Origin: an uncultured Candidatus Saccharibacteria bacterium
GTDB taxonomy: Bacteria; Patescibacteriota; Saccharimonadia; Saccharimonadales; CAIOMD01
DNA: 64,000 bases
Assembly (NCBI GenBank): GCA_964566135.1
Contig: CAZMHM010000001.1
Coordinates: 197,829-261,828 of the forward strand
Direction: 5' to 3'
The notes below the pieces were generated by a model. That model made no database searches, was not told the origin of the DNA, and worked only from the letters and a program-made list of their open reading frames with translations. Positions 25,424 to 56,918 of the stretch are shown here, piece by piece. Both the position numbers and the translations under genes were made by a program. How positions within the stretch are numbered: the first letter of the stretch is position 1; each line of letters starts with the position of its first letter.

Positions 25424-26599
25424 TTAAAAAAGGTTTAAATCCTTGAGTTCTTCGGGCAAAAAACCATCTTTGTGTTTAAAATCGGCTTGCCATTCATAGC
25501 CCTTGCCGTATCCTAAATCCTTCATCAGTTTAGTGGGTGCATTACGGATTTGCAGCGGTACCTGCGCAGTTGGCGTAGCTTTTGCGGTTGCGATGGCTTT
25601 GTTCATGGCATCAGCAACTACTCTCGATTTTTTGCTTGCACTCAACACGAGTGCGCAATGGAACAAGTTGTATTGGCATTCTGGCATACCAATACGTTCT
25701 ACGGCCATAAACGTGCTTACCGCTAAATTGAGCGCCGGACTTGAGGCGATGCCGATATCTTCGCTCGCAAAAATTACCATCCGCCGGGCGATAAATTTTG
25801 GGTCTTCGCCAGCATCAAGCATACGCGCAAGGTAATATAATGCCGCATTACTATCGCTGCCACGCATACTTTTTATAAAGGCACTAATGATGTTGTAGTG
25901 CTGCTCGCCAGCCTTGTCGTAGCCAGGTAGTTTGCGTTGTGCGGCCATTTTAGCCGTTTCTACTGTGATTTTGCCGTTACTTAGTTCAAGACACAGCTCT
26001 AGGTTACCAAGCGCAACACGGGCATCTCCGCCCGAAAGTTCGGCAATATAACCAAGCACTTTTTTATCTGCGCGCTTGGCATCGCCAAGTTTTTTTAAGG
26101 CCCGCCGTAATATCTCAACAATATCGTCAACGCTCAGTGCTTCTAAAACCAGCACACGGCTTCGTGATAACAGGGGAGTAATCACCTCAAAACTCGGGTT
26201 CTCGGTAGTAGCCCCAATTAACGTAATCAGCCCACTTTCAACATGCGGCAAAAAAGCATCTTGTTGTGCCTTGTTAAACCGATGAATCTCATCCACAAAT
26301 AATACTGTTCGCATGCCTAGCCGACGATTTTCACCAGCGTGTTTAATGACTTGCTTCACGTCGGCAATACCGGCTGTAACTGCACTAATCTCAATAAAGT
26401 CCGCCTCGACATCTTTTGCAATAATGCGGGCAAGGGTAGTTTTACCACTGCCGGGTGGACCCCACAATATAAGGCTAAATGGTTGTTTATTCTTAACTAT
26501 TTGGCGCAAAATCTCGCCATCACCCAAAAGATGGGTTTGCCCAATAACCTCATTAAGCGACTGTGGCCGCATGAGCTCCGCAAGAGGAATGTCTGCCAT
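25424..26599 (-). CDS. rarA: replication-associated recombination protein A (AAA+ ATPase)
   Basis: Walker A GPPGSGKTT, Walker B LFVDEIHRFNKAQQD, C-terminal MgsA domain (YDKAGEQHYNIISAFIKSMRGSD). Confidence 0.92.
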   Translation of the reverse strand: MADIPLAELMRPQSLNEVIGQTHLLGDGEILRQIVKNKQPFSLILWGPPGSGKTTLARIIAKDVEADFIEISAVTAGIADVKQVIKHAGENRRLGMRTVLFVDEIHRFNKAQQDAFLPHVESGLITLIGATTENPSFEVITPLLSRSRVLVLEALSVDDIVEILRRALKKLGDAKRADKKVLGYIAELSGGDARVALGNLELCLELSNGKITVETAKMAAQRKLPGYDKAGEQHYNIISAFIKSMRGSDSNAALYYLARMLDAGEDPKFIARRMVIFASEDIGIASSPALNLAVSTFMAVERIGMPECQYNLFHCALVLSASKKSRVVADAMNKAIATAKATPTAQVPLQIRNAPTKLMKDLGYGKGYEWQADFKHKDGFLPEELKDLNLF

Positions 26600-26627
26600 A
26601 CTGCAGATAAGTATAGCTAAAGTGTTG

Positions 26628-26990
26628 CTAGTTTACGACTACAGCGGGTACTTCTTTAGCGACCGTCAGCGCAACCGCTGTCTGAACGATAACTAAAATA
26701 AGTAATATCCAATATACTTTGTTGCCAATTACAGGCTTTTTACGTAGTGCTTCGCAGATGCCCAAAATAACTAAAACGATCCCGAGCTTTACTCCAACAG
26801 CGGTCATGTTATAGTCGTCTGGCGCAATACCCACGAGCGTCAAGCCGCTAATTATTTGCCAGCGCGCTCCGTTTAAAATCACGCCAGTAATTTTATGTGT
26901 TTTAGATGTTAGCTGCGCAAGCAAGCCACCGGCAACAGCCGCAAATCCAAGCAAGTGCGAATAAAACAAAATGTGTGTCAGTAGTTCCAT
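26628..26990 (-). CDS. 4-TM membrane protein, unknown function
   Basis: Hydrophobic 120-aa ORF in an operon-like position behind the BI-1 gene. Confidence 0.5.
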   Translation of the reverse strand: MELLTHILFYSHLLGFAAVAGGLLAQLTSKTHKITGVILNGARWQIISGLTLVGIAPDDYNMTAVGVKLGIVLVILGICEALRKKPVIGNKVYWILLILVIVQTAVALTVAKEVPAVVVN

Positions 26991-27001
26991 AACCCCCCTT
27001 A

Positions 27002-27742
27002 TTAGCTACGCGTCTTTGCTAGTAAGCGTAACACTTCTAGGTATAGCCAGACAAGTGTAACCATAAGCCCGAACGCGCCATACCACTCAAAGACTTTTGG
27101 TGCTTTATTGGTGGCAGCAGTTTCTACAAAGTTAAAATCCAACAACAAATTAAGGGCAGCGATAAAGATAATTACTAGGCTAAAAATAATGCCAAATGTG
27201 CCACTATCGTAAATGAGCGGTGCAGTGATGCCAAACAATCCAAGCACAAAACTTAAAAGGTAATACAAAAAGATGCCGAGGGTCGCAATCATTACGACAG
27301 ACTTAAACTTCTCGGTTACTGTAACAATACGTGCTTGGTATAAAAACAGCGTTGAAAAGAAAATAACACCTGTTAAGGCAATCGCCTGAAGTACTATGCC
27401 GCCATAAGCATCATTTGCCCAGCGCGAAATAGCACCTAGCAAAAAACCCTCTGCAAGCGCATAGAGAGGTGCCGTTATGGGCGTCGATTTCGGTACAAAA
27501 CTCGCAATAAGCGCAAAAACTAGGGCAGCGATTGCCGAAGCGCCAATCAGCACCAGCATAGAAACTGACGCCGACCCAGCCATATTCCAACCAAAGATTC
27601 CGGTCGCGATAACAAGAAATAATAATAGTACCGTTTTAATAACCGTTCCTGTAACCGTAGCATGGCTCGTTGATTCAACTGCCATTACTCGTTCCATCGC
27701 ACCCTTGCCCAGGGCAGGATTACCACTTTTGTCTTGTTGCAC
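27002..27742 (-). CDS. Bax inhibitor-1/YccA-like membrane protein (BaxI_1 type)
   Basis: Start moved to the GTG at 27742, 9 nt after AAGGAGG. SGNPAL N-terminus, 7 TM, C-terminal WLYLEVLRLL. Confidence 0.75.
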   Translation of the reverse strand: MQQDKSGNPALGKGAMERVMAVESTSHATVTGTVIKTVLLLFLVIATGIFGWNMAGSASVSMLVLIGASAIAALVFALIASFVPKSTPITAPLYALAEGFLLGAISRWANDAYGGIVLQAIALTGVIFFSTLFLYQARIVTVTEKFKSVVMIATLGIFLYYLLSFVLGLFGITAPLIYDSGTFGIIFSLVIIFIAALNLLLDFNFVETAATNKAPKVFEWYGAFGLMVTLVWLYLEVLRLLAKTRS

Positions 27743-27806
27743 GTTCAGCACCCTCCTTAACTTCAATTACGCATATGGTAGCGTTAATGACGATTAGGTG
27801 CAATAA

Positions 27807-28433
27807 CTAGCGATTATAGTCAGCAAAATGCATTGTCGTATACGTGCAGCCACTGTTTGTATCTTGCACTTCAGAAACACCAAAGTTCGTATAATCGCCA
27901 ACCATAATTGCATAGTGGGTTGGGCTGGCTAATAATGCATCAAATGCCGCCTGTCGAGTATCGTAACAACGCGCCAAATTCTCGCCAACACGATCAGCTT
28001 TGGGTGATAGCCGCCAGATATAGTCCGAGAAACTCATGCCGTTTGGCGCATAATGCGCCCAATAGTTCTGCAGTACCATATCGTTACCCTTTTGCGTCGC
28101 ACTTGTTGATAAGCGAGCATCAATAAGCAATGCTGACAGCCCTTTGCTGGCACGTAGTGTATTTATCGCACCAAGATAATACTGCTCGGCGTCGGTTCGT
28201 GTGATAACGATCGCAGCAGGAGTTCCGGCCGCGCTTGCCACAGGCGAGGATGCAAGCATTGTGAGTGATGGACTTGTAACTGTAACAATAAAAAGCAATG
28301 CCGCCAATATATACCTGCTAGCGAGTACGGTCTGTTCTATACTACGAGCAAACACACCAGCACTATGGCGAAATTGATTACTATTGCTATTCTTATCAAG
28401 TAAAAATGCCTGCGGCATTAGCACATGATTCAT
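27807..28433 (-). CDS. secreted CAP/SCP (PR-1-like) domain protein
   Basis: AAAGGAGG RBS, signal anchor. C-terminal domain with YWAHYAPNG, GENLARC, LASPTHYAIM. Confidence 0.75.
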   Translation of the reverse strand: MNHVLMPQAFLLDKNSNSNQFRHSAGVFARSIEQTVLASRYILAALLFIVTVTSPSLTMLASSPVASAAGTPAAIVITRTDAEQYYLGAINTLRASKGLSALLIDARLSTSATQKGNDMVLQNYWAHYAPNGMSFSDYIWRLSPKADRVGENLARCYDTRQAAFDALLASPTHYAIMVGDYTNFGVSEVQDTNSGCTYTTMHFADYNR

Positions 28434-28476
28434 TACACACCTCCTTTAAGGTAGAAGCACAGATGTAGTGTAAATA

Positions 28477-28654
28477 AAAAACCGGCCAACTACTGACCGG
28501 ACAAATACAAACAGATTGCTGTTGCAGGCCCGGTTTCGCTACTAACTCCCCCAAAAGCCAAGCGACCACATACAGCTTTTAGGATCAACGCTTACACTAC
28601 AAGTACACACGTTACTTATAATCCAACAAGGTCCATAAGTGACTCACACTTAGT
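28477..28654 (-). ncRNA. candidate ~180-nt noncoding leader or sRNA ending in an intrinsic terminator
   Basis: Bounded by the promoter at 28661-28689 and the hairpin CCGGTCAGTAGTTGGCCGG + TTTTTT (28501-28477, minus sense). No ORF of 60 aa or more. Several internal hairpins. Confidence 0.45.
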
Positions 28655-28660
28655 GAACAT

Positions 28661-28689
28661 ATAATACATCTTTATTGCATTATTGTCAA
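28661..28689 (-). promoter_or_regulatory. near-consensus sigma70 promoter
   Basis: Minus sense: TTGACA (28689-28684) - 17 nt - TATTAT (28666-28661). Confidence 0.6.
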
Positions 28690-28723
28690 TAGTATTTATG
28701 CGTACAAACCAACCATAAGCTAT

Positions 28724-28752
28724 TTGGTATCAACGCGAATTCGCCGTATAAT
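28724..28752 (+). promoter_or_regulatory. sigma70-type promoter for the pilin-like gene
   Basis: TTGGTA - 17 nt - TATAAT. Confidence 0.5.
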
Positions 28753-28787
28753 TACCCGTAATAGCATTAATAAAAGGATTCTCTTAC

Positions 28788-29123
28788 GTGAAAAAAGCGC
28801 AACAAGGCTTTTCGGTTGTAGAGGTACTCATAATCGTCGTCGTACTTCTTGTTGTTGGGGGCGTTGGGTATTTTGCAGTGTCGAAAATCACTAAATCTAC
28901 AAAGAAAACAGATACGACCACAAGCACACAATCTAAATCTGGCTCTTCGTCTGCTACGCCAGCAGCCGGTACGAGCGCGAGCATTGACTTATTAACAGCA
29001 CAAGACGCAAGTAGTGAAGCAGCGATTGATAGTAAGTATGCTCAGGGCGAACAAACAACAGCAGCAAGCACGAATACTGCAGTATCAAATGTAGGAGGCT
29101 CAATTGATGAAACGTCTCTCTAA
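28788..29123 (+). CDS. type IV pilin/pseudopilin-like protein
   Basis: N-terminal MKKAQQGFSVVEVLIIVVVLLVVGG fits the prepilin cleavage/methylation motif (G|FxxxE plus hydrophobic helix). GTG start. Confidence 0.7.
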   Translation: MKKAQQGFSVVEVLIIVVVLLVVGGVGYFAVSKITKSTKKTDTTTSTQSKSGSSSATPAAGTSASIDLLTAQDASSEAAIDSKYAQGEQTTAASTNTAVSNVGGSIDETSL

Positions 29124-29898
29124 AAACCGTATTGCTTCAATTATTTCATCTGTTGTTGCCGTACCGTTGTTTGCAATTGCTCCTGCTGCTGCAGCACTCT
29201 CTACTGGCGGTCCATCAGTAGCACAGTCGGTAAAGGAAACCAGCCCATTTTGTACCAACATTGTTAGCAATGTTGGTAAAATTAATTCGAGCTTGAACGC
29301 TGCAAAACTTAAAGTTGATGAAGCTCGCACCGAACGTGTCGCCACGCAAACCGCTAACCGCGCTAAGTGGGACCAAGAACTAGCAGCTAACCGCGCTAAG
29401 TGGGACCAGCAACGTCAGGAAAACTTTACAAAGCTAGAAGCAAAAGCAACGACGGATGCCCAGAAAACTGCGGTTCAAACCTATAAAAAAGCCATTACTG
29501 ATGCAATCAGTACTCGACGGGCAACAAACGATAAGGCTCGAGCCGATTTTCGATCCGCAGTTGATAGCCTTATATCTGGTCAGAATTCGACTGTTAACGC
29601 ACAATCGGTTATCTTAACAACGACAATCTCGACAGCAATCTCGACAGCACAAGCCGCTTGTTACGCCACGCCAGCTGAAGGCGCAACAATCCGCACCACT
29701 CTACAAGCAGGCATCAAGACTGCTAAAGAAACGTTTAATAACGCCCGAAAGTCAGATTCAAACCTTGGCGATCAAATCCAAAAACTGGCCGAAACTCGTA
29801 ATACCACTATCAAAGCCAATGACAGTGCCTTTGAAGCAGCAGCAAAAGCAGCCCGCGATACGCTTAAGGCTGCCTTTGGCACTAATGCCACAATATAA
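29107..29898 (+). CDS. secreted alpha-helical repeat protein, unknown function
   Basis: AGGAGG lies 8 nt upstream of ATG 29107. Signal peptide ending AIAPAAAA. Tandem ANRAKWDQ units. Confidence 0.55.
   Translation: MKRLSKNRIASIISSVVAVPLFAIAPAAAALSTGGPSVAQSVKETSPFCTNIVSNVGKINSSLNAAKLKVDEARTERVATQTANRAKWDQELAANRAKWDQQRQENFTKLEAKATTDAQKTAVQTYKKAITDAISTRRATNDKARADFRSAVDSLISGQNSTVNAQSVILTTTISTAISTAQAACYATPAEGATIRTTLQAGIKTAKETFNNARKSDSNLGDQIQKLAETRNTTIKANDSAFEAAAKAARDTLKAAFGTNATI
29353..29408 (+). repeat. 23-bp perfect direct repeat with 33-bp period (coding)
   Basis: GCTAACCGCGCTAAGTGGGACCA occurs at 29353-29375 and 29386-29408. Confidence 0.9.
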
Positions 29899-31591: not shown

Positions 31592-31666
<75 letters not shown>

Positions 31667-33864: not shown

Positions 33865-35151
33865 GTGGGTATTCAAACTATAATGTTTGGACTTGGAAAA
33901 AACGAAAATGCAAAAACTCCGTCTGGCACCAGCCTGGCGAGTAGTTTGCATGACGAAAAAGCCAAATCAGAAATAATTCTTAATTCAATCGATGACGGCG
34001 TCATACTACTGGACACAAATCGGACAATTCAATTATTTAATAAAGCTGCCGAAAAAATAACTGGTTGGCCACAAAAAGACGCACTCGGGCTCGATTACAA
34101 ATCTGTCATCAAAATGATTGATGACAAAAATGAGCCTTATACCCCCGAACAAGACCCGCTTGAGCGTATCTTTAGCGAGATTGCGCCGATTCGTGACAAT
34201 ACCGGTAACTTAAAGACCCAAGGCGAAAAAACGGTTGCAATATCAATGAGCGTCAGTCCACTTATTAGCCAAAATAATGAGATTACCGGCGCCGTAGCAG
34301 TCTTTCGTGATGTCACCAGCGAACGTCAAGAAGAAAAGCAACGTGCCGAATTTATCAGTACTGCAAGCCACGAGATGCGCACACCCGTGGCTGCGATAGA
34401 AGGTTACTTAGCGCTTGCCATGAACGAACGTGTTGCCCGTATCGATAGCAAAGCGCGCGAGTATCTTGAAAAAGCACATGCTAGCACCGAACATCTTGGC
34501 AAATTATTCCAGGATCTATTGACTAGTGCCAAGGCAGAGGATGGTCGCCTACAAAACCATCCTGTAGTTGTTGAAATGGGTGAATTTTTGCAGCAACTCA
34601 CCGAAGATATGCGCTTTACCGCCGAAAAAAAGGGCTTGGCTGTCGACTTTTTAATCGGCGCGAGCGCAGAGGATGCACTCAGCTCAAAAGCGGGTGGCTC
34701 GATGAAATTGGTACGACCGTTGTACTACATTCATGCTGACCCAGATCGTTTGCGAGAAGTTATTGTTAACCTGTTTGATAACGCCATTAAATACACCGAA
34801 GCGGGTAAGATTACCATTGGCCTAGCAGGCGATGATAATGTCGTGCAAGTACGAGTACAAGATACAGGTAATGGCATCCCCTCAGAGGACGTCCCACATC
34901 TATTCGAAAAATTCTACCGTGTCGATAACACCGCAACTCGTACCATTGGCGGTACGGGTCTTGGTTTGTTTATTTGTCGTAAAATTGTCGAGCTGTACAG
35001 TGGCCGAATCTGGGTAACAAGTGAGTTAAATAAAGGTAGTACCTTCTTTATTAACTTACCACGAATTTCCTCAGAACGGGCACGAGATTTACAGATTAAA
35101 GAAGCTGCACAAAGCCAACCAACCGGCATAACGCAAGCCACAAAAGTTTAA
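33865..35151 (+). CDS. cytoplasmic PAS-domain sensor histidine kinase
   Basis: PAS (ILNSIDDGVILLD...), H-box SHEMRTPVAAIEGY, NAIKYT, GGTGLGLFICRKIVELYSGRIWVTSELNKGSTFFINLP. The start could instead be ATG 33883. Confidence 0.9.
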   Translation: MGIQTIMFGLGKNENAKTPSGTSLASSLHDEKAKSEIILNSIDDGVILLDTNRTIQLFNKAAEKITGWPQKDALGLDYKSVIKMIDDKNEPYTPEQDPLERIFSEIAPIRDNTGNLKTQGEKTVAISMSVSPLISQNNEITGAVAVFRDVTSERQEEKQRAEFISTASHEMRTPVAAIEGYLALAMNERVARIDSKAREYLEKAHASTEHLGKLFQDLLTSAKAEDGRLQNHPVVVEMGEFLQQLTEDMRFTAEKKGLAVDFLIGASAEDALSSKAGGSMKLVRPLYYIHADPDRLREVIVNLFDNAIKYTEAGKITIGLAGDDNVVQVRVQDTGNGIPSEDVPHLFEKFYRVDNTATRTIGGTGLGLFICRKIVELYSGRIWVTSELNKGSTFFINLPRISSERARDLQIKEAAQSQPTGITQATKV

Positions 35152-35229
35152 GTAGTAACAAAGTGTTTGCCATCATGCTACAATACAATCAAATTAAGCA
35201 AAAGCGTTAAACAGGGGTAGTAACGAGAT

Positions 35230-36663
35230 ATGCCAAAAATTATGCTTGTCGAGGACGACAATAATCTACGAGAAATATACGGCGAACGGCTCATGGCCGA
35301 AGGTTACGAAATAGTGTCAGCCGGAGACGGCGAGGAAGCACTTGCGCTTGCAGTTAAAGAAAAACCAGATCTTATTATTAGCGATGTTATGATGCCGAAA
35401 ATTAGCGGCTTTGACATGCTAGATATTTTGCGCCAAACGCCAGAAACCAAAGATACTAAAGTTATCATGATGACCGCACTGAGCCAAAGCGAAGATAAAG
35501 ATCGCGCCGATAAGCTCGGTGCCGATAAATACTTAGTCAAATCGCAAGTTACCCTAGAAGACGTCGCCCGCGTCGTGCATGATTTACTATACGGCGCCGA
35601 AGAATCAACCCCTGAAACAGCTAGTGCCGGTCCAGAGACAGCTACCCAAGCACCAGTCGTTACTGCACCCGCACCCGTTGCCGAAGCACCAGAAGCCGAG
35701 ACTGCTGTTGTCGAGCCAACAGTTGTTGCTCCACAAGCAGTAGCCGAACCACCAGCTGATCCGGTAGTCACAGATACTGCTACGCCCGCCGTAGCTGCCC
35801 CTACAGCCGATAATCCCATTCCTGCAACAGAAGAACCCGACAATGATGGAGAACCTGTTGTTCTACCACCAGCTGCGCCCGAAGCCGCACCCGTTGCCGA
35901 AGCACCAGAAGCCGAGACTGCTGTTGTCGAGCCAACAGTTGTTGCTCCACAAGCAGTAGCCGAACCTGAAGCAGCGCCGGCAGAGGCACCAGTCATTAAT
36001 CCAATTGTCGGAGTTGCAGCAGAGGCGGTAGCGCCAGCAAGCAATGGTGTTGAATCCGCAACCGCACAAAGCACCGAAGACGAAACGCAACAGATAACCG
36101 ACCAAATTAACCAATTTGTAAATGCACAATTAGCCGAAGAGCCAAAACACGAAGAACCACTCGTAGAGCCAAGCGAACAAGATTTAATTCACGCCCAGAA
36201 CGAGGTAGAAGCACCAACTGTTATTCAACCTGCCGTTGACCCAACAGTTCCACAAGTCGTTACTGACGACAGTGATGCAAGCAATCCAGAGCCAGCTAGT
36301 GCCCGCAAGAAAGTAATCTCACCACTGAATGATCCTACTACGAGCGGACCAAACATCAACGAACTATACGAACAAGAAATGGCTAAAGAAGCCGCTGACA
36401 GCCCAGTAATCAACCCTGGGGCAGGCGCAACACTTGATGCGCCCGTAACAAATAACCCTATCGTGGGCAACCCAGAAGCAATCCAAGCGCCAGCAGCGCT
36501 CGAAACAATTGATGTAAGCCAAATAGAAGGCCTTAGCGTTGGCGAAGAGCAGCCATTAGCACCACCACCATCTCCAATTGCGGCAGCAACAGTTACGCCA
36601 CAAGCGCCAGCAGCAGAAGAAAAGCCAGTTGACCCTAATGACCCAGCTAGTTTTGCTCTATAA
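35230..36663 (+). CDS. response regulator receiver fused to a ~350-aa Pro/Ala/Glu-rich low-complexity tail
   Basis: Receiver: IMLVEDD, DLIISDVMMPKISGFD, KYLVKS. The rest has no recognisable output domain. Confidence 0.85.
   Translation: MPKIMLVEDDNNLREIYGERLMAEGYEIVSAGDGEEALALAVKEKPDLIISDVMMPKISGFDMLDILRQTPETKDTKVIMMTALSQSEDKDRADKLGADKYLVKSQVTLEDVARVVHDLLYGAEESTPETASAGPETATQAPVVTAPAPVAEAPEAETAVVEPTVVAPQAVAEPPADPVVTDTATPAVAAPTADNPIPATEEPDNDGEPVVLPPAAPEAAPVAEAPEAETAVVEPTVVAPQAVAEPEAAPAEAPVINPIVGVAAEAVAPASNGVESATAQSTEDETQQITDQINQFVNAQLAEEPKHEEPLVEPSEQDLIHAQNEVEAPTVIQPAVDPTVPQVVTDDSDASNPEPASARKKVISPLNDPTTSGPNINELYEQEMAKEAADSPVINPGAGATLDAPVTNNPIVGNPEAIQAPAALETIDVSQIEGLSVGEEQPLAPPPSPIAAATVTPQAPAAEEKPVDPNDPASFAL
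35671..35750 (+). repeat. 80-bp perfect direct repeat, copy 1 (coding)
   Basis: Identical to 35887-35966. Encodes APVAEAPEAETAVVEPTVVAPQAVAEP. Confidence 0.95.
35887..35966 (+). repeat. 80-bp perfect direct repeat, copy 2 (coding)
   Basis: Identical to 35671-35750, offset 216 bp (72 codons, in frame). Confidence 0.95.
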
Positions 36664-46942: not shown

Positions 46943-47809
46943 ATGCTTATGCTTCATACCACCCCTGATAAAAAGAATTATCCTAAGGTGTTATTACAGC
47001 TTGCGCAACCACCTAAAAATTTGTTTATAGAAAGCAAAAATTGGCCCGAACTAGCCGAAAAACCTATGCTTGCTGTTGTCGGCAGCCGTAAAGTTAGTAC
47101 CTACGGCCGTAGCGTAACCGAACAACTAGTGCGTGGGGTAGTAGCGCGGGGAATAGTGATTGTGAGCGGCCTAGCGCTCGGGCTTGATGCGATAGCGCAC
47201 CAAACCGCACTTGATGCCGGTGGACAAACCATTGCCGTACTACCCAGCGGGCTCGAAGCGATATACCCAAGTACGCACCACCAACTTGCACGCAACATCG
47301 TTGCGCAGGGCGGGGCGCTCATTAGCGAATACCCACCGCACGAAAAAATCGCGTTTAAGGGTAACTTTATTGCCCGAAACAGAATCGTGGCGGGACTTTG
47401 CGCAGCAATACTCATACCAGAAGCTGCCGAAAAAAGCGGTAGTTTGCATACCGCAAACTTTGCTTTAGAGCAAGGCAAAGACGTTTTAGCTGTGCCGGGC
47501 CCAATTACCAGCCCGTTAAGTGCGGGATGCAACAATCTTATTAAAATTGGCGCTACACCCGTTACGAGCCTCGATGATATTTTGGCAGTCTATCAGTTGC
47601 CAGCAACGGCAGGCGAAACACATCACGTACAAGCTGCAAACGCCGCAGAACACGCCATTCTAGAGCTCATCGCCAGCGGCGTAACCGATATCGATACCTT
47701 ACAGACTTCTTCGGGGCTAACCCCACTAGAGTTCCAGCAAACCCTTAGCATGCTAGAGATTACCGGCAAGGTTTCTGCGCAAGGCGGCGGCAGCTGGACG
47801 TTGCGATAA
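46943..47809 (+). CDS. dprA: DNA-processing protein DprA (Smf)
   Basis: AVVGSRKVSTYG, VSGLALGLDAIAHQTALDAGGQTIAVLPSGL, SGSLHTANFALEQGKDVLAVPGPI. Confidence 0.9.
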   Translation: MLMLHTTPDKKNYPKVLLQLAQPPKNLFIESKNWPELAEKPMLAVVGSRKVSTYGRSVTEQLVRGVVARGIVIVSGLALGLDAIAHQTALDAGGQTIAVLPSGLEAIYPSTHHQLARNIVAQGGALISEYPPHEKIAFKGNFIARNRIVAGLCAAILIPEAAEKSGSLHTANFALEQGKDVLAVPGPITSPLSAGCNNLIKIGATPVTSLDDILAVYQLPATAGETHHVQAANAAEHAILELIASGVTDIDTLQTSSGLTPLEFQQTLSMLEITGKVSAQGGGSWTLR

Positions 47810-53229: not shown

Positions 53230-54285
53230 ATGGCAACTAAAACACCTACTATCGCAAGCAGTTCATTAGATTTGGACGTCGTTTTAAAGGGTGTTTTGGG
53301 TTCTATCGAACGAGAACGTGAACGAGAGATTGTTTCGCGTCGTTTTGGCCTGTATGACCGCAAGGAAACTCTCGAGCAAATTGGTGAGCTCTTGGGCATT
53401 ACCCGCGAACGCGTTCGTCAGCTCGAAAAGGTTGTCGTAACACGCCTTAAAAGCACTGCAGCAAGCGGTAATTTGCCACATATTAAAGAAGTTGAAACAG
53501 TAGTTCTTGAAATTTTAGCCCAGAACGGCAATGCAATGCGCGTGAGCGAACTTGCCGGCTTGCTAACCAAGCAGGGAAGCAAGATAGATCAAGCTCGTAT
53601 TTCGTTTTTAGCTGAACTTTCACCAGAGATTAGTGTTATAGAAGAAAGCGACCATTTTTATAACGCCGTTGGTACCCGTAAGGTCCACGACGAAAAGAAG
53701 ATGCGCGAACTTACTAATAAAATTGTTGAAGCAGTCAAGAAAATTGGCAAACCTACTGATATCAAGAGCATCGCTAACGGTGTTGGCGACGAAGACGTTA
53801 GCCATGTAAGCGCGCTGGCAAGTATTTCTAAGCACCTTGCAGAGCTCAACGATCGTTGGGGTCTTACAAAATGGCCAATGGTTAACCCAAAGAACATCCG
53901 CGACAAAATCTATGTTATCTTGCACGAAAACGGCAAGCACATGCACTTTAATGAAATTGCCGAATCTATCCGTATTTCTGACTTTAAGCGCAAAGACGTT
54001 ACTACCCAAGCAATTCACAACGAACTTATAAAAGATAAGCGCTTTGTTCTTATCGGTCGTGGTATTTATGCACTCCAAGAATGGGGCTATAAAAAGGGTA
54101 CTGTAGCCGACATGATAACAGAGGTACTTACAGAAGCTGGCGAGCCACTTCACCGTGATGAAATCGTAAAGCGCGTGCTAAAATCACGTCATGTCAAAGA
54201 AACTACTATTCTTTTGAACCTACAAGGCAAACCACAATTCAAGCGCGTTGCAAAAGCAACCTACACACTTGCTGAAACCGCCTAA
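53230..54285 (+). CDS. sigma-70 region-4-like HTH protein with C-terminal HARE-HTH-like domain
   Basis: TLEQIGELLGITRERVRQLEKVVVTRLK (region 4.2-like). C-terminal MHFNEIAESI...VLIGRGIYALQEWGY resembles a HARE-HTH domain. Confidence 0.7.
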   Translation: MATKTPTIASSSLDLDVVLKGVLGSIEREREREIVSRRFGLYDRKETLEQIGELLGITRERVRQLEKVVVTRLKSTAASGNLPHIKEVETVVLEILAQNGNAMRVSELAGLLTKQGSKIDQARISFLAELSPEISVIEESDHFYNAVGTRKVHDEKKMRELTNKIVEAVKKIGKPTDIKSIANGVGDEDVSHVSALASISKHLAELNDRWGLTKWPMVNPKNIRDKIYVILHENGKHMHFNEIAESIRISDFKRKDVTTQAIHNELIKDKRFVLIGRGIYALQEWGYKKGTVADMITEVLTEAGEPLHRDEIVKRVLKSRHVKETTILLNLQGKPQFKRVAKATYTLAETA

Positions 54286-54356: not shown

Positions 54357-56918
54357 ATGGCAACTAATTCTTCTACTCACACGCTTTTACTCCTTGAGAT
54401 TCCTCGTACCAACGACAAGAAAGAACTTGCGGCCGAGCAGATGTTTGCCGCGCTCCACGGCATATTAAAGCCCCGCCGCGAACTATTAGGCGGAGCCCAA
54501 GATCATATTAGTTTTGAAATTGCCGCTATTGGTCAGCGTATTAAGTTTTATGTATGGCTTCCAAAAAACCTTCAGTCTTTTGTCGAAGGACAGATTTACG
54601 CTCAATACCCAACAGCACAGATTTCAGAATTAGAAGAAGATTACGCGCAGCGCCCTATGCCACAACCTGTAATCTACACTACCGAACTCACTCTTACCGA
54701 TCACGAAACAATCCCCATCAAGACATTCCCAAGCTTTGAGGTTGACCCCTTGGCGGCCATTACCGCTACCTTTGCCAAACTAGAGCAACCCAACGAAGAA
54801 ATGTGGATTCAAATGATTGTACGGCCAATTAGCGATGATTGGCACAAACAAAGCTCACGCATGGTGAGTCGCATTACGTCAGGGCGGGGCAGTTGGGGCA
54901 GTGCTGGTATCGCCTCTGGAATAAGCTATGTTGGGCAGGCTTTTGGGGCACTTGTACGGCCTCCGTCAGAAACAACAACTGCCTATGTGCCGTCCGAACG
55001 CGAAAAGACCCGTATAACTGCTATAGAAGAGAAGAGCCGAAAACTTGGATACCAGGTTAAAATTCGTATTGTATACGCAGGTAACGACCAAGCAACTGCG
55101 CGCATGCGTATGCAAGCAATGGTCGGCACCTTTAAGCAGTTTAATACCACCAATCTCAACGGCTTCCAGAGTAAGTTCGCAAGTTTTGAGCCTTCAAAAT
55201 TAGCGCCATACGCCGCACGCACGTTCCTCGACAAGGGGTTTATCTTAAATATCGAAGAAGTCGCTAGCGTATATCACTTACCACACACCAGCGTAGAAAC
55301 ACCAAATATCGTTTGGGCAACCACCAAAACTGCCGAACCACCCGCCACGTTGCCGTCGTTTGGTCAATATCCCGAAAATGAGCTCAGCCTGTATGGCACG
55401 ACCAATTTTAGAGGTAGTAATACAATGTTTGGCTTATTACGCGCTGACCGCGGACGTCATGTGTATATTTTAGGTCAAACTGGTACCGGTAAATCAGGTT
55501 TGCTCGAGCTGCTCACACTTTCTGATATTTATTATGACCAGGGCATGGCCGTTATCGACCCACACGGCGATTACGCCACTAGTATCATGCGCTACATACC
55601 CGAACGTCGCATAAAGGACGTTATTTACTTTAACCCGGCAGATGTCGACTACCCAATTGGCTTTAACCCACTCGAAGTTACCGATTCGGTCAGTAAAGGC
55701 CAGGTGAGTAGTGAGCTTGTAGGCGTGCTCAAGCGCATGTTTGATAGCTGGGGGCCACGGCTCGAATATATCCTTCGATTTACTATTTTAGCCCTGTTGG
55801 ACTACCCAAATGCAACCATGCTTGATATTACCCGCATGCTTACCGAAAAGCGCTTTCGTGATGATGTTATTAGCTATATTGACGATCCGGTCGTTAAAAA
55901 CTTCTGGGTTACCGAATTTGCCAGCTGGAACGAAAAATTTGCATCAGAGGCCGTTGCGCCGGTGCTTAACAAGGTTGGCGCGTTTACCGCTAACCCGATT
56001 ATTCGTAATATCATTGGTCAGCCAAAAAGTACCTTTAGCATTAGACGCGCCATGGATGAGGGCAAGATTATTGTTGTTAACCTCTCCCGTGGCCTTGTCG
56101 GCGAAGATAACGCTGCTATCTTAGGCGCCATGTTTGTAACCAAAATACAATTAGCCGCCATGAGCCGTGCTGATATTCCACGGCTTGAAGACAGGCGCCC
56201 ATTCTATCTATATGTCGACGAATTCCAGAACTTTGCCACTGATAGTTTTGCGGTTATTTTAAGCGAAGCGCGTAAATATGCGCTTAATCTAACGATTGCC
56301 AACCAATACATCTCGCAGATGGAAGAAACGGTTCGTGGCGCCGTTTTTGGCAACGTCGGTACAATGATTACATTCCGCGTAAGCCCAGATGATAGCCCAT
56401 TCTTAAGCAAGTACTATGAGCCGCAGTTTGAGGCAGCAGATCTATCGAACTTCCATAATCGTCACTTTGTGACGAGCATGAGTATTAATGGCGAAAAAGC
56501 AGCCGCGTTCTCTGGTATAACGTTAAATATACCCCAGCCCCAGCACAGTAATATCGATGAAATCATCGCCCATTCGCGCCGCGAATACGCAGCCGACTTA
56601 CATACAGTTGAAGATATGATTAGAGCCGCAACACTGCCCCAGCAGCACGCTGCTGCTGCGCCACAACAGGCTCAACAGCAGCAATCAAGACAATCACACG
56701 ATGGCAAGAGTCATACCATCGTTGCACCATTACCTATTGCTCGCCCATATCCGCCCCAAGAGCAGCCCAAGATAGTCGAAACTGAATCCCAAAAACGTCG
56801 ACGTCGCCGCAAACGTGCAGCACAAGCACAAGAGCAGGCGACACCAAGGGTAGCGCCACCACCGCCACCAGTCCACAACCAACCCGATGATGATTCGGGC
56901 GTCCTAAAGATACGCTAA
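54357..56918 (+). CDS. VirD4/TraD-like (type IV coupling protein family) P-loop ATPase with CPR-type N-terminal domain and Q/R-rich tail
   Basis: Walker A GQTGTGKSGLLE, DPHGDY, Walker B LYVDEFQNF, TIANQY. C-terminal QQQ and RRRRRKR tracts. Confidence 0.75.
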   Translation: MATNSSTHTLLLLEIPRTNDKKELAAEQMFAALHGILKPRRELLGGAQDHISFEIAAIGQRIKFYVWLPKNLQSFVEGQIYAQYPTAQISELEEDYAQRPMPQPVIYTTELTLTDHETIPIKTFPSFEVDPLAAITATFAKLEQPNEEMWIQMIVRPISDDWHKQSSRMVSRITSGRGSWGSAGIASGISYVGQAFGALVRPPSETTTAYVPSEREKTRITAIEEKSRKLGYQVKIRIVYAGNDQATARMRMQAMVGTFKQFNTTNLNGFQSKFASFEPSKLAPYAARTFLDKGFILNIEEVASVYHLPHTSVETPNIVWATTKTAEPPATLPSFGQYPENELSLYGTTNFRGSNTMFGLLRADRGRHVYILGQTGTGKSGLLELLTLSDIYYDQGMAVIDPHGDYATSIMRYIPERRIKDVIYFNPADVDYPIGFNPLEVTDSVSKGQVSSELVGVLKRMFDSWGPRLEYILRFTILALLDYPNATMLDITRMLTEKRFRDDVISYIDDPVVKNFWVTEFASWNEKFASEAVAPVLNKVGAFTANPIIRNIIGQPKSTFSIRRAMDEGKIIVVNLSRGLVGEDNAAILGAMFVTKIQLAAMSRADIPRLEDRRPFYLYVDEFQNFATDSFAVILSEARKYALNLTIANQYISQMEETVRGAVFGNVGTMITFRVSPDDSPFLSKYYEPQFEAADLSNFHNRHFVTSMSINGEKAAAFSGITLNIPQPQHSNIDEIIAHSRREYAADLHTVEDMIRAATLPQQHAAAAPQQAQQQQSRQSHDGKSHTIVAPLPIARPYPPQEQPKIVETESQKRRRRRKRAAQAQEQATPRVAPPPPPVHNQPDDDSGVLKIR

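Follow-up and report, generated by a model that had tools for sequence, protein, structure and literature searches.

The riboswitches of the c-di-GMP-II class (Rfam clan CL00127), whose ligand is cyclic di-GMP (c-di-GMP), are well known, and all four class-II switches of Clostridioides difficile are ON switches in which c-di-GMP leads to read-through (PMC6366702). Here we describe a leader RNA on the minus strand of a 64-kb stretch of DNA (hereafter the window) from an uncultured Candidatus Saccharibacteria bacterium (contig CAZMHM010000001.1), directly upstream of a gene encoding a CAP-domain protein. The leader adds a member to the c-di-GMP-II class and is not a new kind of system. Taken as a whole, the locus is probably a c-di-GMP-II riboswitch that controls intrinsic termination ahead of a CAP-BaxI operon and acts as an OFF switch. 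Coordinates are those of the window, and loci labelled L0xx are those of the relatives compared with it.

Identification of a c-di-GMP-II aptamer in the CAP leader

At gathering thresholds, an Rfam scan of the window returned two matches, one to a tRNA and one to RF03169 (c-di-GMP-II-GAG) at 28604-28520 (-), the latter scoring 40.4 bits (E 2.1e-4), which exceeds the gathering score of 40 by 0.4 bits. With E-value reporting, the best match within the clan is the canonical c-di-GMP-II family RF01786 at 28602-28519 (-), with 46.7 bits and an E-value of 2.9e-9 for the local region or 4.4e-7 for the whole window, and the alignment runs from end to end of the model (positions 1-84). The aptamers of CAP orthologs score 42.5-50.3 bits on the same model. 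No other riboswitch clan matches the leader, and no second copy of the aptamer was detected in the window at E<=1. Leader matches to Plastid-clpP, HSUR and PinT (12-20 bits, E 0.6-9) were dismissed as noise. The tRNA gene, at 31595-31666 (-) with 63.9 bits, is the only other gathering-level match in the window. The leader is very probably a cis-acting riboswitch of the c-di-GMP-II class, with the following parts.

28522..28602 (-): aptamer of the c-di-GMP-II class, from Rfam and structure counts
28602-28594 with 28529-28522 (-): P1
28593 (-): unpaired A13
28592-28590 with 28546-28544 (-): P2
28589-28584 (GUUGAU) and 28549-28547 (GGA) (-): kink-turn (k-turn)
28583-28575 with 28558-28550 (-): P3, with its loop at 28574-28559
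28562..28565 (-): pseudoknot 5' strand U40 C41 G42 C43 in the P3 loop, pairing with G65 C66 G67 A68 at 28539-28536
28528..28543 (-): J(P2-P1) ligand-pocket strand, A61 to C76, AGUAGCGAAACCGGGC

The search for relatives used a pattern taken from the window itself; a custom covariance model built on them was considered and rejected, as scoring the window with it would be circular. Scanning 185,579 species genomes with it produced 44 loci with the same aptamer core, hosted by Trueperaceae, Chloroflexota, Firmicutes, Actinomycetota, Saccharibacteria, Berkelbacteria and Parcubacteria, and a metagenome-wide scan matched only the L008 contig. The aptamers of 33 relatives were aligned on the class-II structure, including the pseudoknot; 88.5% of cells are paired, versus 32-42% when the 3' partners are slid, and both sides vary in 17 of the 21 pairs. 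At pseudoknot pair 40/68 there are 17 U-A, nine A-U and seven G-C combinations and none unpaired, while the remaining three pseudoknot pairs are set by the search pattern and so are uninformative. The exchange is also seen between CAP leaders, the ortholog L007 having A40-U68 where the window has U40-A68.

The invariant nucleotides of the class are all present in the window (U37, G38, G39, GGAG, A61, A69, A70, C71, C72 and G73). In the 3Q3Z structure, the ligand is contacted by A13, A14, U37, G39, U60, A61, C68, A69, A70, C71, C72, G73 and A74, as listed in a review (PMC7288161). When these contacts were placed on the Rfam consensus by our own mapping, 11/13 positions were identical in the window; the two that differ are C68A, which is compensated by G40U, and position 74, a G that matches the Rfam consensus 'g'. 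From these nucleotides, c-di-GMP is the predicted ligand of the leader.

Conservation of the leader upstream of CAP orthologs

The aptamer is found upstream of CAP in six distinct lineages, represented by the window, L056, L007, L008, L060 and L057 (the six leaders). Identical copies are present in L009, L010 and L055 (as L008), in L061 (as L060) and in L058 (as L057). The CAP orthologs that carry it (L007, L008-10, L056, L057, L060) share 57-73% amino-acid identity. Promoter, aptamer, terminator and Shine-Dalgarno (SD) sequence follow in the same order in all six leaders: TTGACA-17-TAnnAT stands at the matching position, an equivalent terminator hairpin with a U-run is present, and AGGAG(G/A)UG-N5-AUG is kept, each in 6/6.

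An earlier note on this DNA had read promoter, structured leader, hairpin with U-tract, SD and CAP start from the letters alone, and each lies on the minus strand where it was placed. Two of the analyses proposed there, an Rfam scan and a comparison of the regions upstream of CAP orthologs, gave the c-di-GMP-II clan match at 28602-28522 (-) and a leader that is kept in six lineages. Its suggestion of a transcription-attenuation riboswitch layout, in the order promoter, aptamer, terminator and gene, is borne out by an aptamer that Rfam can detect and by the persistence of the layout in five other lineages.

One copy of the aptamer, that of L057 (1280-1372; identical in L058), looks degenerate: it has A61G, P1 is shortened at its top, and the antiterminator has 5 bp. 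Its scores stay below every Rfam gathering threshold, and it may be a decaying riboswitch. Orthologs that have no aptamer (L002 2915-2990; L006 2915-2990) have another, short leader in which a hairpin, GACGAUUCUUUCGCC...GGCGAGGGAGUCGUC followed by UUUU, immediately precedes the SD and may act as an attenuator of another kind or as a 5' stabiliser.

Expression platform

The following elements would connect the aptamer to termination.

28476..28500 (-): intrinsic terminator, with its stem at 28500-28482 and its U-tract at 28481-28476
28496..28502 (-): GUCCGGU, made up of the first bases of the terminator 5' arm and the 2 nt that precede them, complementary to A70-C76 over 7 bp
28613..28622 (-): 5' strand AUUAUAAGUA of P0 ('anti-P1'), pairing with UACUUGUAGU at 28605-28596 and so overlapping the P1 5' strand

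The terminator stem, CCGGTCAG-TAG-TTGGCCGG in DNA, has 8 bp, five of them G-C, and a 3-nt loop, and is followed by T6; as RNA it is CCGGUCAG-UAG-UUGGCCGG and then U6. With a stem dG of -9.9 kcal/mol and seven U in the tract window, the 28500-28482 hairpin and U6 are, by the criteria for such sites, a predicted intrinsic (Rho-independent) terminator upstream of the CAP open reading frame (ORF). In the CAP leaders the terminator forms a hairpin of its own, placed 36-58 nt further downstream across the six (36 nt in the window). Its 5' arm together with the two preceding bases reads GUCCGGU or GCCCGGU, complementary to ACCGGGC (A70-C76), and its 3' arm, UUGGCCGG, resembles the aptamer strand ACCGGG. 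Residues A70-C76 of the pocket strand (28534-28528) appear to double as the antiterminator strand.

Nascent transcripts were folded up to the terminator 5' arm (T5), and the minimum free energy (MFE) structure contained the 7-bp ACCGGGC:T5 helix in four of the six leaders (window, L056, L007 and L060). The duplex between aptamer and T5 ranges from -8.6 to -15.0 kcal/mol in the six CAP leaders and from -1.7 to -5.9 kcal/mol in 11 other aptamers with separate terminators; because the duplexes of these 11 are much weaker, the complementarity is not a by-product of G+C-rich stems. Across the six leaders 92.9% of antiterminator cells pair. The pair between G75 and T5 is GC in four leaders, AU in one and GU in one, the change in L057 (G75A with C-to-U in T5) being compensatory. 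P0 is present in the MFE folds of 6/6 leaders, with duplex energies of -5.7 to -11.4 kcal/mol; its pairing register varies between lineages, which leaves it with moderate support.

The platforms of approximately 50 c-di-GMP-II aptamers with a GCGN pseudoknot were surveyed. In about 21 relatives, for example, L012, L015, L023 and L033, the pocket strand ACCGGCC is itself the terminator 5' arm (AACCGGCC-loop-GGCCGGUUUU), and since bound ligand would in that case have to block termination, these are taken to be of the ON type. The upstream aptamer of L032 has the strand ACCGAGC, T5 of CUCGGUUUC and a 3' arm of GAAACCGAG, giving a 9-bp perfect alternative helix, and L030 has the same design, in which the 3' arm mimics the pocket strand. 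Such OFF-type, mimic-arm platforms were seen only in Saccharibacteria-type loci, namely L030 7857-7700 (-), L032 1642-1480 (-) and the CAP leaders. Another helix that was considered, formed directly between the aptamer strand and the 3' arm and U-tract of the terminator, is possible in the window; it is not conserved in L007 and was rejected.

The proposed mechanism is as follows. Without ligand, the P0 hairpin would hold the P1 5' strand, and ACCGGGC would pair with GUCCGGU as an antiterminator, allowing RNA polymerase to read through and leaving the operon on. When c-di-GMP is bound, P1, the pseudoknot and the pocket strand would be locked in the aptamer, and the terminator hairpin 28500-28482 with U6 would form, stopping transcription and turning the operon off. 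We infer an OFF switch because the terminator 5' arm complements the pocket strand and the 3' arm mimics it. On this folding model OFF polarity is reasonably likely, with high c-di-GMP repressing a membrane-anchored or secreted CAP protein.

Conserved elements at the 5' end and downstream of the terminator

Two further elements are shared by the six leaders.

28636..28652 (-): 5'-terminal hairpin UAAGUG-(UGAGU)-CACUUA, from the RNAalifold consensus and folds
28457..28471 (-): conserved box ACACUACAUCUGUGC, located past the terminator and with complementarity to the hub GUGUACUUGUAGUGU at 28608-28594

Five pairs of the 5'-terminal hairpin are invariant in 6/6 leaders and two flanking pairs are kept in 4/6; in its simplest reading it is presumably a 5' stabiliser of the mRNA. 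A conserved (G)GACCUU follows it at 28633-28626. An anti-SD role for the ACCUU was considered and is unsupported, an A-to-U change in L057 being uncompensated.

The box is found in 6/6 leaders between the U-tract and the SD, at a distance of approximately 10-30 nt from the latter (close to 10 nt in the window), and its sequence was found nowhere else in the window. The hub to which it is complementary contains the P1 5' strand, the box core ACACUACAUCU... pairing with GUGUAcuUGUAGUGU. In the six leaders box and hub form a 13-pair RNAalifold consensus helix with duplex energies of -14.6 to -16.3 kcal/mol, stronger than either P1 or P0. When the box and antiterminator helices are counted together, 96% of cells pair, versus 18-53% when slid. 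Because it lies downstream of the terminator, the box cannot affect termination; it may hold read-through mRNA in its ligand-free conformation, give rise to a site for processing, or bring in control at the level of translation. Of the two P1 strands, the 5' one hardly varies and its 3' partner drifts, an asymmetry that fits a strand with three alternative partners.

Polarity and the distinctiveness of the Saccharibacteria-type subgroup

Several observations weigh against a c-di-GMP-responsive OFF switch at this locus. For the aptamer, the RF01786 score of 46.7 bits is below the gathering score of 53.5, and there are irregularities in P1, which is closed by a U12-G75 pair and has a bulged U. 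For the platform, the polarity comes from thermodynamic folding without pseudoknot, ligand or kinetic terms; the antiterminator pairs are mostly invariant in only six sequences, and 38/500 shuffles reach the covariation score; the antiterminators of L008 and L057 have only 5-6 bp and are not in the MFE structure; and CCGG is palindromic, which provides some complementarity for free. The transcription start and the activity of the terminator are themselves deduced, and the conserved box downstream of the terminator has no role in the proposed model. The distribution of the riboswitch is also patchy among close relatives, the element being missing from L002-L006, L059 and L062-L070, which have short leaders; of these, L002-L006, L059, L062 and L063 are close orthologs.

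A last point concerns the source of the ligand. No gene with a GGDEF, EAL, HD-GYP or PilZ domain was found in the 64-kb window by a motif search, a local GGDEF hidden Markov model, phmmer with a PilZ protein and Pfam on approximately 55 ORFs. In the candidate phyla radiation (CPR) loci compared, a look for c-di-GMP enzymes or receptors found only the PilZ gene of L014. Diguanylate cyclases have been reported in metagenome-assembled genomes of ultra-small organisms (Patescibacteria/DPANN) (PMC9938205).

The strongest competing explanation keeps the aptamer and reverses its polarity, so that the ligand promotes read-through. The four ON switches of C. difficile and the approximately 21 ON-type relatives in our survey favor it, and the conserved P0 and box indicate a platform more complex than the OFF model. 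Against it, the terminator here is a separate hairpin whose 5' arm complements the pocket strand and whose 3' arm copies it, and we found no conserved sequence that would sequester the terminator only in the bound state. We consider an ON switch unlikely.

It is more doubtful that the Saccharibacteria-type subgroup forms a functionally distinct branch, either with altered ligand preference or as a two-layer device. Its members score below the canonical gathering threshold, close P1 with a Y12-G75 pair and have a pocket strand that reads 'GAA' and serves also as antiterminator; the closing pair of P1 is U-G or C-G in Saccharibacteria-type copies versus G-C in most others. In the first version the ligand could be some other dinucleotide, cyclic or linear, that in an epibiont might come from the host. 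In the second, the helix between the P1 5' strand and the box could add a further step of control after transcription, for example over processing or translation. Either version would go beyond a c-di-GMP-II switch of inverted polarity.

The GAG label and relatives beyond the CAP leaders

A specificity variant of the c-di-GMP-II fold that senses another ligand, as the GAG label might imply, would account for RF03169 being the sole family above its gathering score (by 0.4 bits), for the atypical P1-closing pair and for the window having no c-di-GMP enzymes that we could find. The consensus sequences of RF03169 and RF01786 differ at the pseudoknot positions 40, 42, 66 and 68 and at the pair C37/G69, the GAG consensus being ...CGGuCGC... 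/ ...GCGAGACCG.... We infer that 'GAG' denotes positions 67-69 and that C37/G69 is the defining feature of the family. The window has U37 (28568) and A69 (28535), in GUGGUCGC / GCGAAACCG, and C37/G69 is absent from it and from all orthologs. The only GAG differences that it carries are those of the pseudoknot, which are the covariations 40/68 and 42/66. By its pocket nucleotides the window sequence is canonical, positions 67-69 being 'GAA', and the Rfam label misleads; the label is applied because the cut-off of RF03169 is only 40 bits.

Relatives with the same pseudoknot argue in the same direction. Aptamers with the GCGN pseudoknot that pass the RF01786 gathering score do so with 54-77 bits and include the CPR copies L014, L030, L032, L034 and L045, while L036, L040, L042, L051 and L060 are, like the window, assigned to GAG at gathering, yet all have U37/A69. 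Because same-pseudoknot aptamers pass the canonical threshold, the window copy grades into the accepted members of the class. Some of these aptamers also adjoin c-di-GMP genes. The aptamer of the Berkelbacteria locus L014 (2243-1688 (-); 68 bits on RF01786) is directly upstream of a gene for a 126-aa PilZ-domain protein, so that, judged from sequence, this CPR genome appears to place a c-di-GMP receptor under the control of a c-di-GMP riboswitch, and the L023 aptamer precedes a protein with both GGDEF and HD-GYP domains. A ligand other than c-di-GMP is therefore quite improbable.

Other CPR contexts are of the kind usual for c-di-GMP riboswitch regulons (PMC6366702). The L034 and L051 aptamers precede Thr-rich proteins that end in LALTG or LATTG, a membrane segment and a basic tail and thus resemble sorting-signal proteins; the L036 aptamer precedes a glucosaminidase-domain protein and the L032 aptamer a secreted protein. 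By analogy, a secreted CAP protein would fit such a regulon. Tandem c-di-GMP-II aptamers, two per leader, occur in L011, L018, L032 and L045; L045 is a Parcubacteria locus in which the pair is upstream of a receiver-domain protein, and L032 is a Saccharimonas locus.

Transcription unit and operon

The elements that begin the transcript and the genes that follow the leader are listed below.

28661..28689 (-): sigma-70-type promoter TTGACA-17-TATTAT, 11/12 consensus matches
28689-28684 and 28666-28661 (-): promoter boxes TTGACA and TATTAT, separated by a 17-nt spacer
28431..28447 (-): SD AAAGGAGG at 28447-28440 and CAP start codon ATG at 28433-28431
28433-27807 (-): CAP/YkwD-like protein, 208 aa, Pfam CAP E 1.8e-12
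27766-27002 (-): BaxI_1 membrane protein, Pfam
26990-26628 (-): 120-aa membrane protein
26599-25424 (-): RarA, possible last member of the operon

Transcription would start near 28655-28653, leaving a structured leader of approximately 175 nt between promoter and CAP gene. Promoter-like matches arise by chance in this AT-rich sequence (three in a 2-kb region, versus 3.2 expected), and a single match is uninformative. The CAP protein has an N-terminal hydrophobic or transmembrane segment. CAP, BaxI_1, the gene for the 120-aa protein and possibly rarA (25424..28433 (-)) appear to form one regulated operon. A terminator-like site was looked for in the CAP-BaxI interval and none was seen.

Most orthologous loci keep the order CAP - BaxI_1 - 120-aa membrane protein - RarA, the departures being an extra 246-aa gene in L008 and the missing 120-aa gene in L063. 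Homologs of the CAP protein have 46-96% identity and are mostly metagenomic, more distant named matches being 'Candidatus Saccharimonadales' and 'Patescibacteria group', and a RarA homolog at 75% identity is named Patescibacteria; these names point to a Patescibacteria host, probably one of the Saccharimonadia. Two further look-ups of orthologs through RarA homologs gave only loci that are aptamer-less or non-syntenic.

An independent small RNA acting in trans, with the CAP gene adjacent by chance, had been the other proposal of the earlier note. Promoter and terminator do bound a discrete transcript of approximately 175 nt, a terminated product that would still exist under the riboswitch model, and terminated riboswitch fragments that act in trans are known elsewhere, for example, SreA of Listeria. 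However, the element is kept in front of CAP orthologs alone, adjacent to them and in the same orientation, and CAP has no promoter of its own; the box downstream of the terminator pairs with the 5' part and so ties the element to the mRNA; and the window holds one copy of the element and no matching target box elsewhere. The small RNA proposal found no support and is very improbable.

The possibility of a ydaO-type c-di-AMP riboswitch, which the earlier note had raised from loose motif resemblance, or of a leader-peptide attenuator, to which mechanical ORFs of 57 and 32 aa overlapping the leader might point, is negligible: RF00379 (ydaO) is not matched in 28380-28800 even with E-values up to 10, nor in the window as a whole with E-values up to 1, and c-di-GMP-II matches instead; the motifs in question are real and belong to c-di-GMP-II, UUGAUCC being the k-turn bulge and the start of P3, GGGGGAG the end of P3 and the k-turn GGA, and CGAAACCGG the pseudoknot and ligand-pocket strand; and conservation in the leader follows RNA helices rather than codons, with linker indels that are not multiples of three.

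Other genes in the window

Divergent from the riboswitch promoter is a pilin-like gene (Pfam N_methyl; 28788-29123 (+)) with its own promoter, TTGGTA-17-TATAAT at 28724-28752 (+). A 264-aa ORF at 29104-29898 (+) overlaps it, and both are syntenic with CAP in L002, L005, L008, L057 and L060.

A PAS-HisKA-HATPase kinase and, after it, a protein with a response-regulator receiver (REC) domain are encoded at 33865-36663 (+). Beyond the receiver, this protein continues into a low-complexity tail of approximately 370 aa in which Ala, Pro, Glu and Val are abundant, with an internal direct repeat of about 27 aa and no recognisable output domain found. The REC-domain protein (35230-36663) was considered as a GGDEF protein and rejected. 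Elsewhere, an 853-aa protein (54357-56918 (+)) matches HerA/DUF87 and TrwB-type coupling-protein ATPases, a protein with sigma-70 region-4 and HARE-HTH matches lies upstream of it (53230-54285), and DprA is encoded at 46943-47809; the 853-aa ATPase and the HARE-HTH protein may be part of a module for DNA transfer or competence.

Implications and comparison with known systems

If the proposed switch is correct, a reduced-genome lineage of Patescibacteria uses c-di-GMP, read by RNA, to shut off a CAP protein and a BaxI-family membrane protein, which would provide a testable handle on second-messenger control of the surface in host-attached organisms that are hard to grow. It would also mean that a class-II aptamer has been wired OFF by a terminator 3' arm that mimics the ligand-pocket strand, a device that recurs, within the surveyed sample, only in Saccharibacteria-type genomes. 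For annotation, Rfam gathering thresholds tag the window and at least five related CPR aptamers as GAG despite their canonical pocket. The unusual host group, the probable inverted polarity and the extra conserved long-range helix set the locus apart.

The closest known system is RF01786 (3Q3Z, Clostridium acetobutylicum). The two share P1, an unpaired A13, a 3-bp P2, the k-turn (UGA / GGA), P3 and a pseudoknot from loop to 3' tail, have the same invariant nucleotides and stand upstream of a gene for a surface or secreted protein. They differ in the pseudoknot, GCGA/UCGC here versus GUGC/GCAC, and in the closing pair of P1, which is U-G with a bulged U here versus G-C; in addition, the host here belongs to the Patescibacteria, the terminator is separate, and the prediction is OFF. 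With RF03169 the window shares the pseudoknot base changes at 40, 42, 66 and 68 and a score that passes gathering, but it does not have the C37/G69 pair. Like Cdi-2-4 (pilA1) of C. difficile and other class-II riboswitches (PMC6366702), it combines an aptamer with an intrinsic terminator ahead of surface-associated genes; unlike the C. difficile ON switches, the complementarity of its aptamer strand, T5 and terminator 3' arm (T3) predicts an OFF response when modeled by folding. The ydaO riboswitches (RF00379) resemble it as leaders of cyclic-dinucleotide type that stand before envelope-related genes and end in a terminator, whereas there is no match in sequence or structure and the fold is unrelated.

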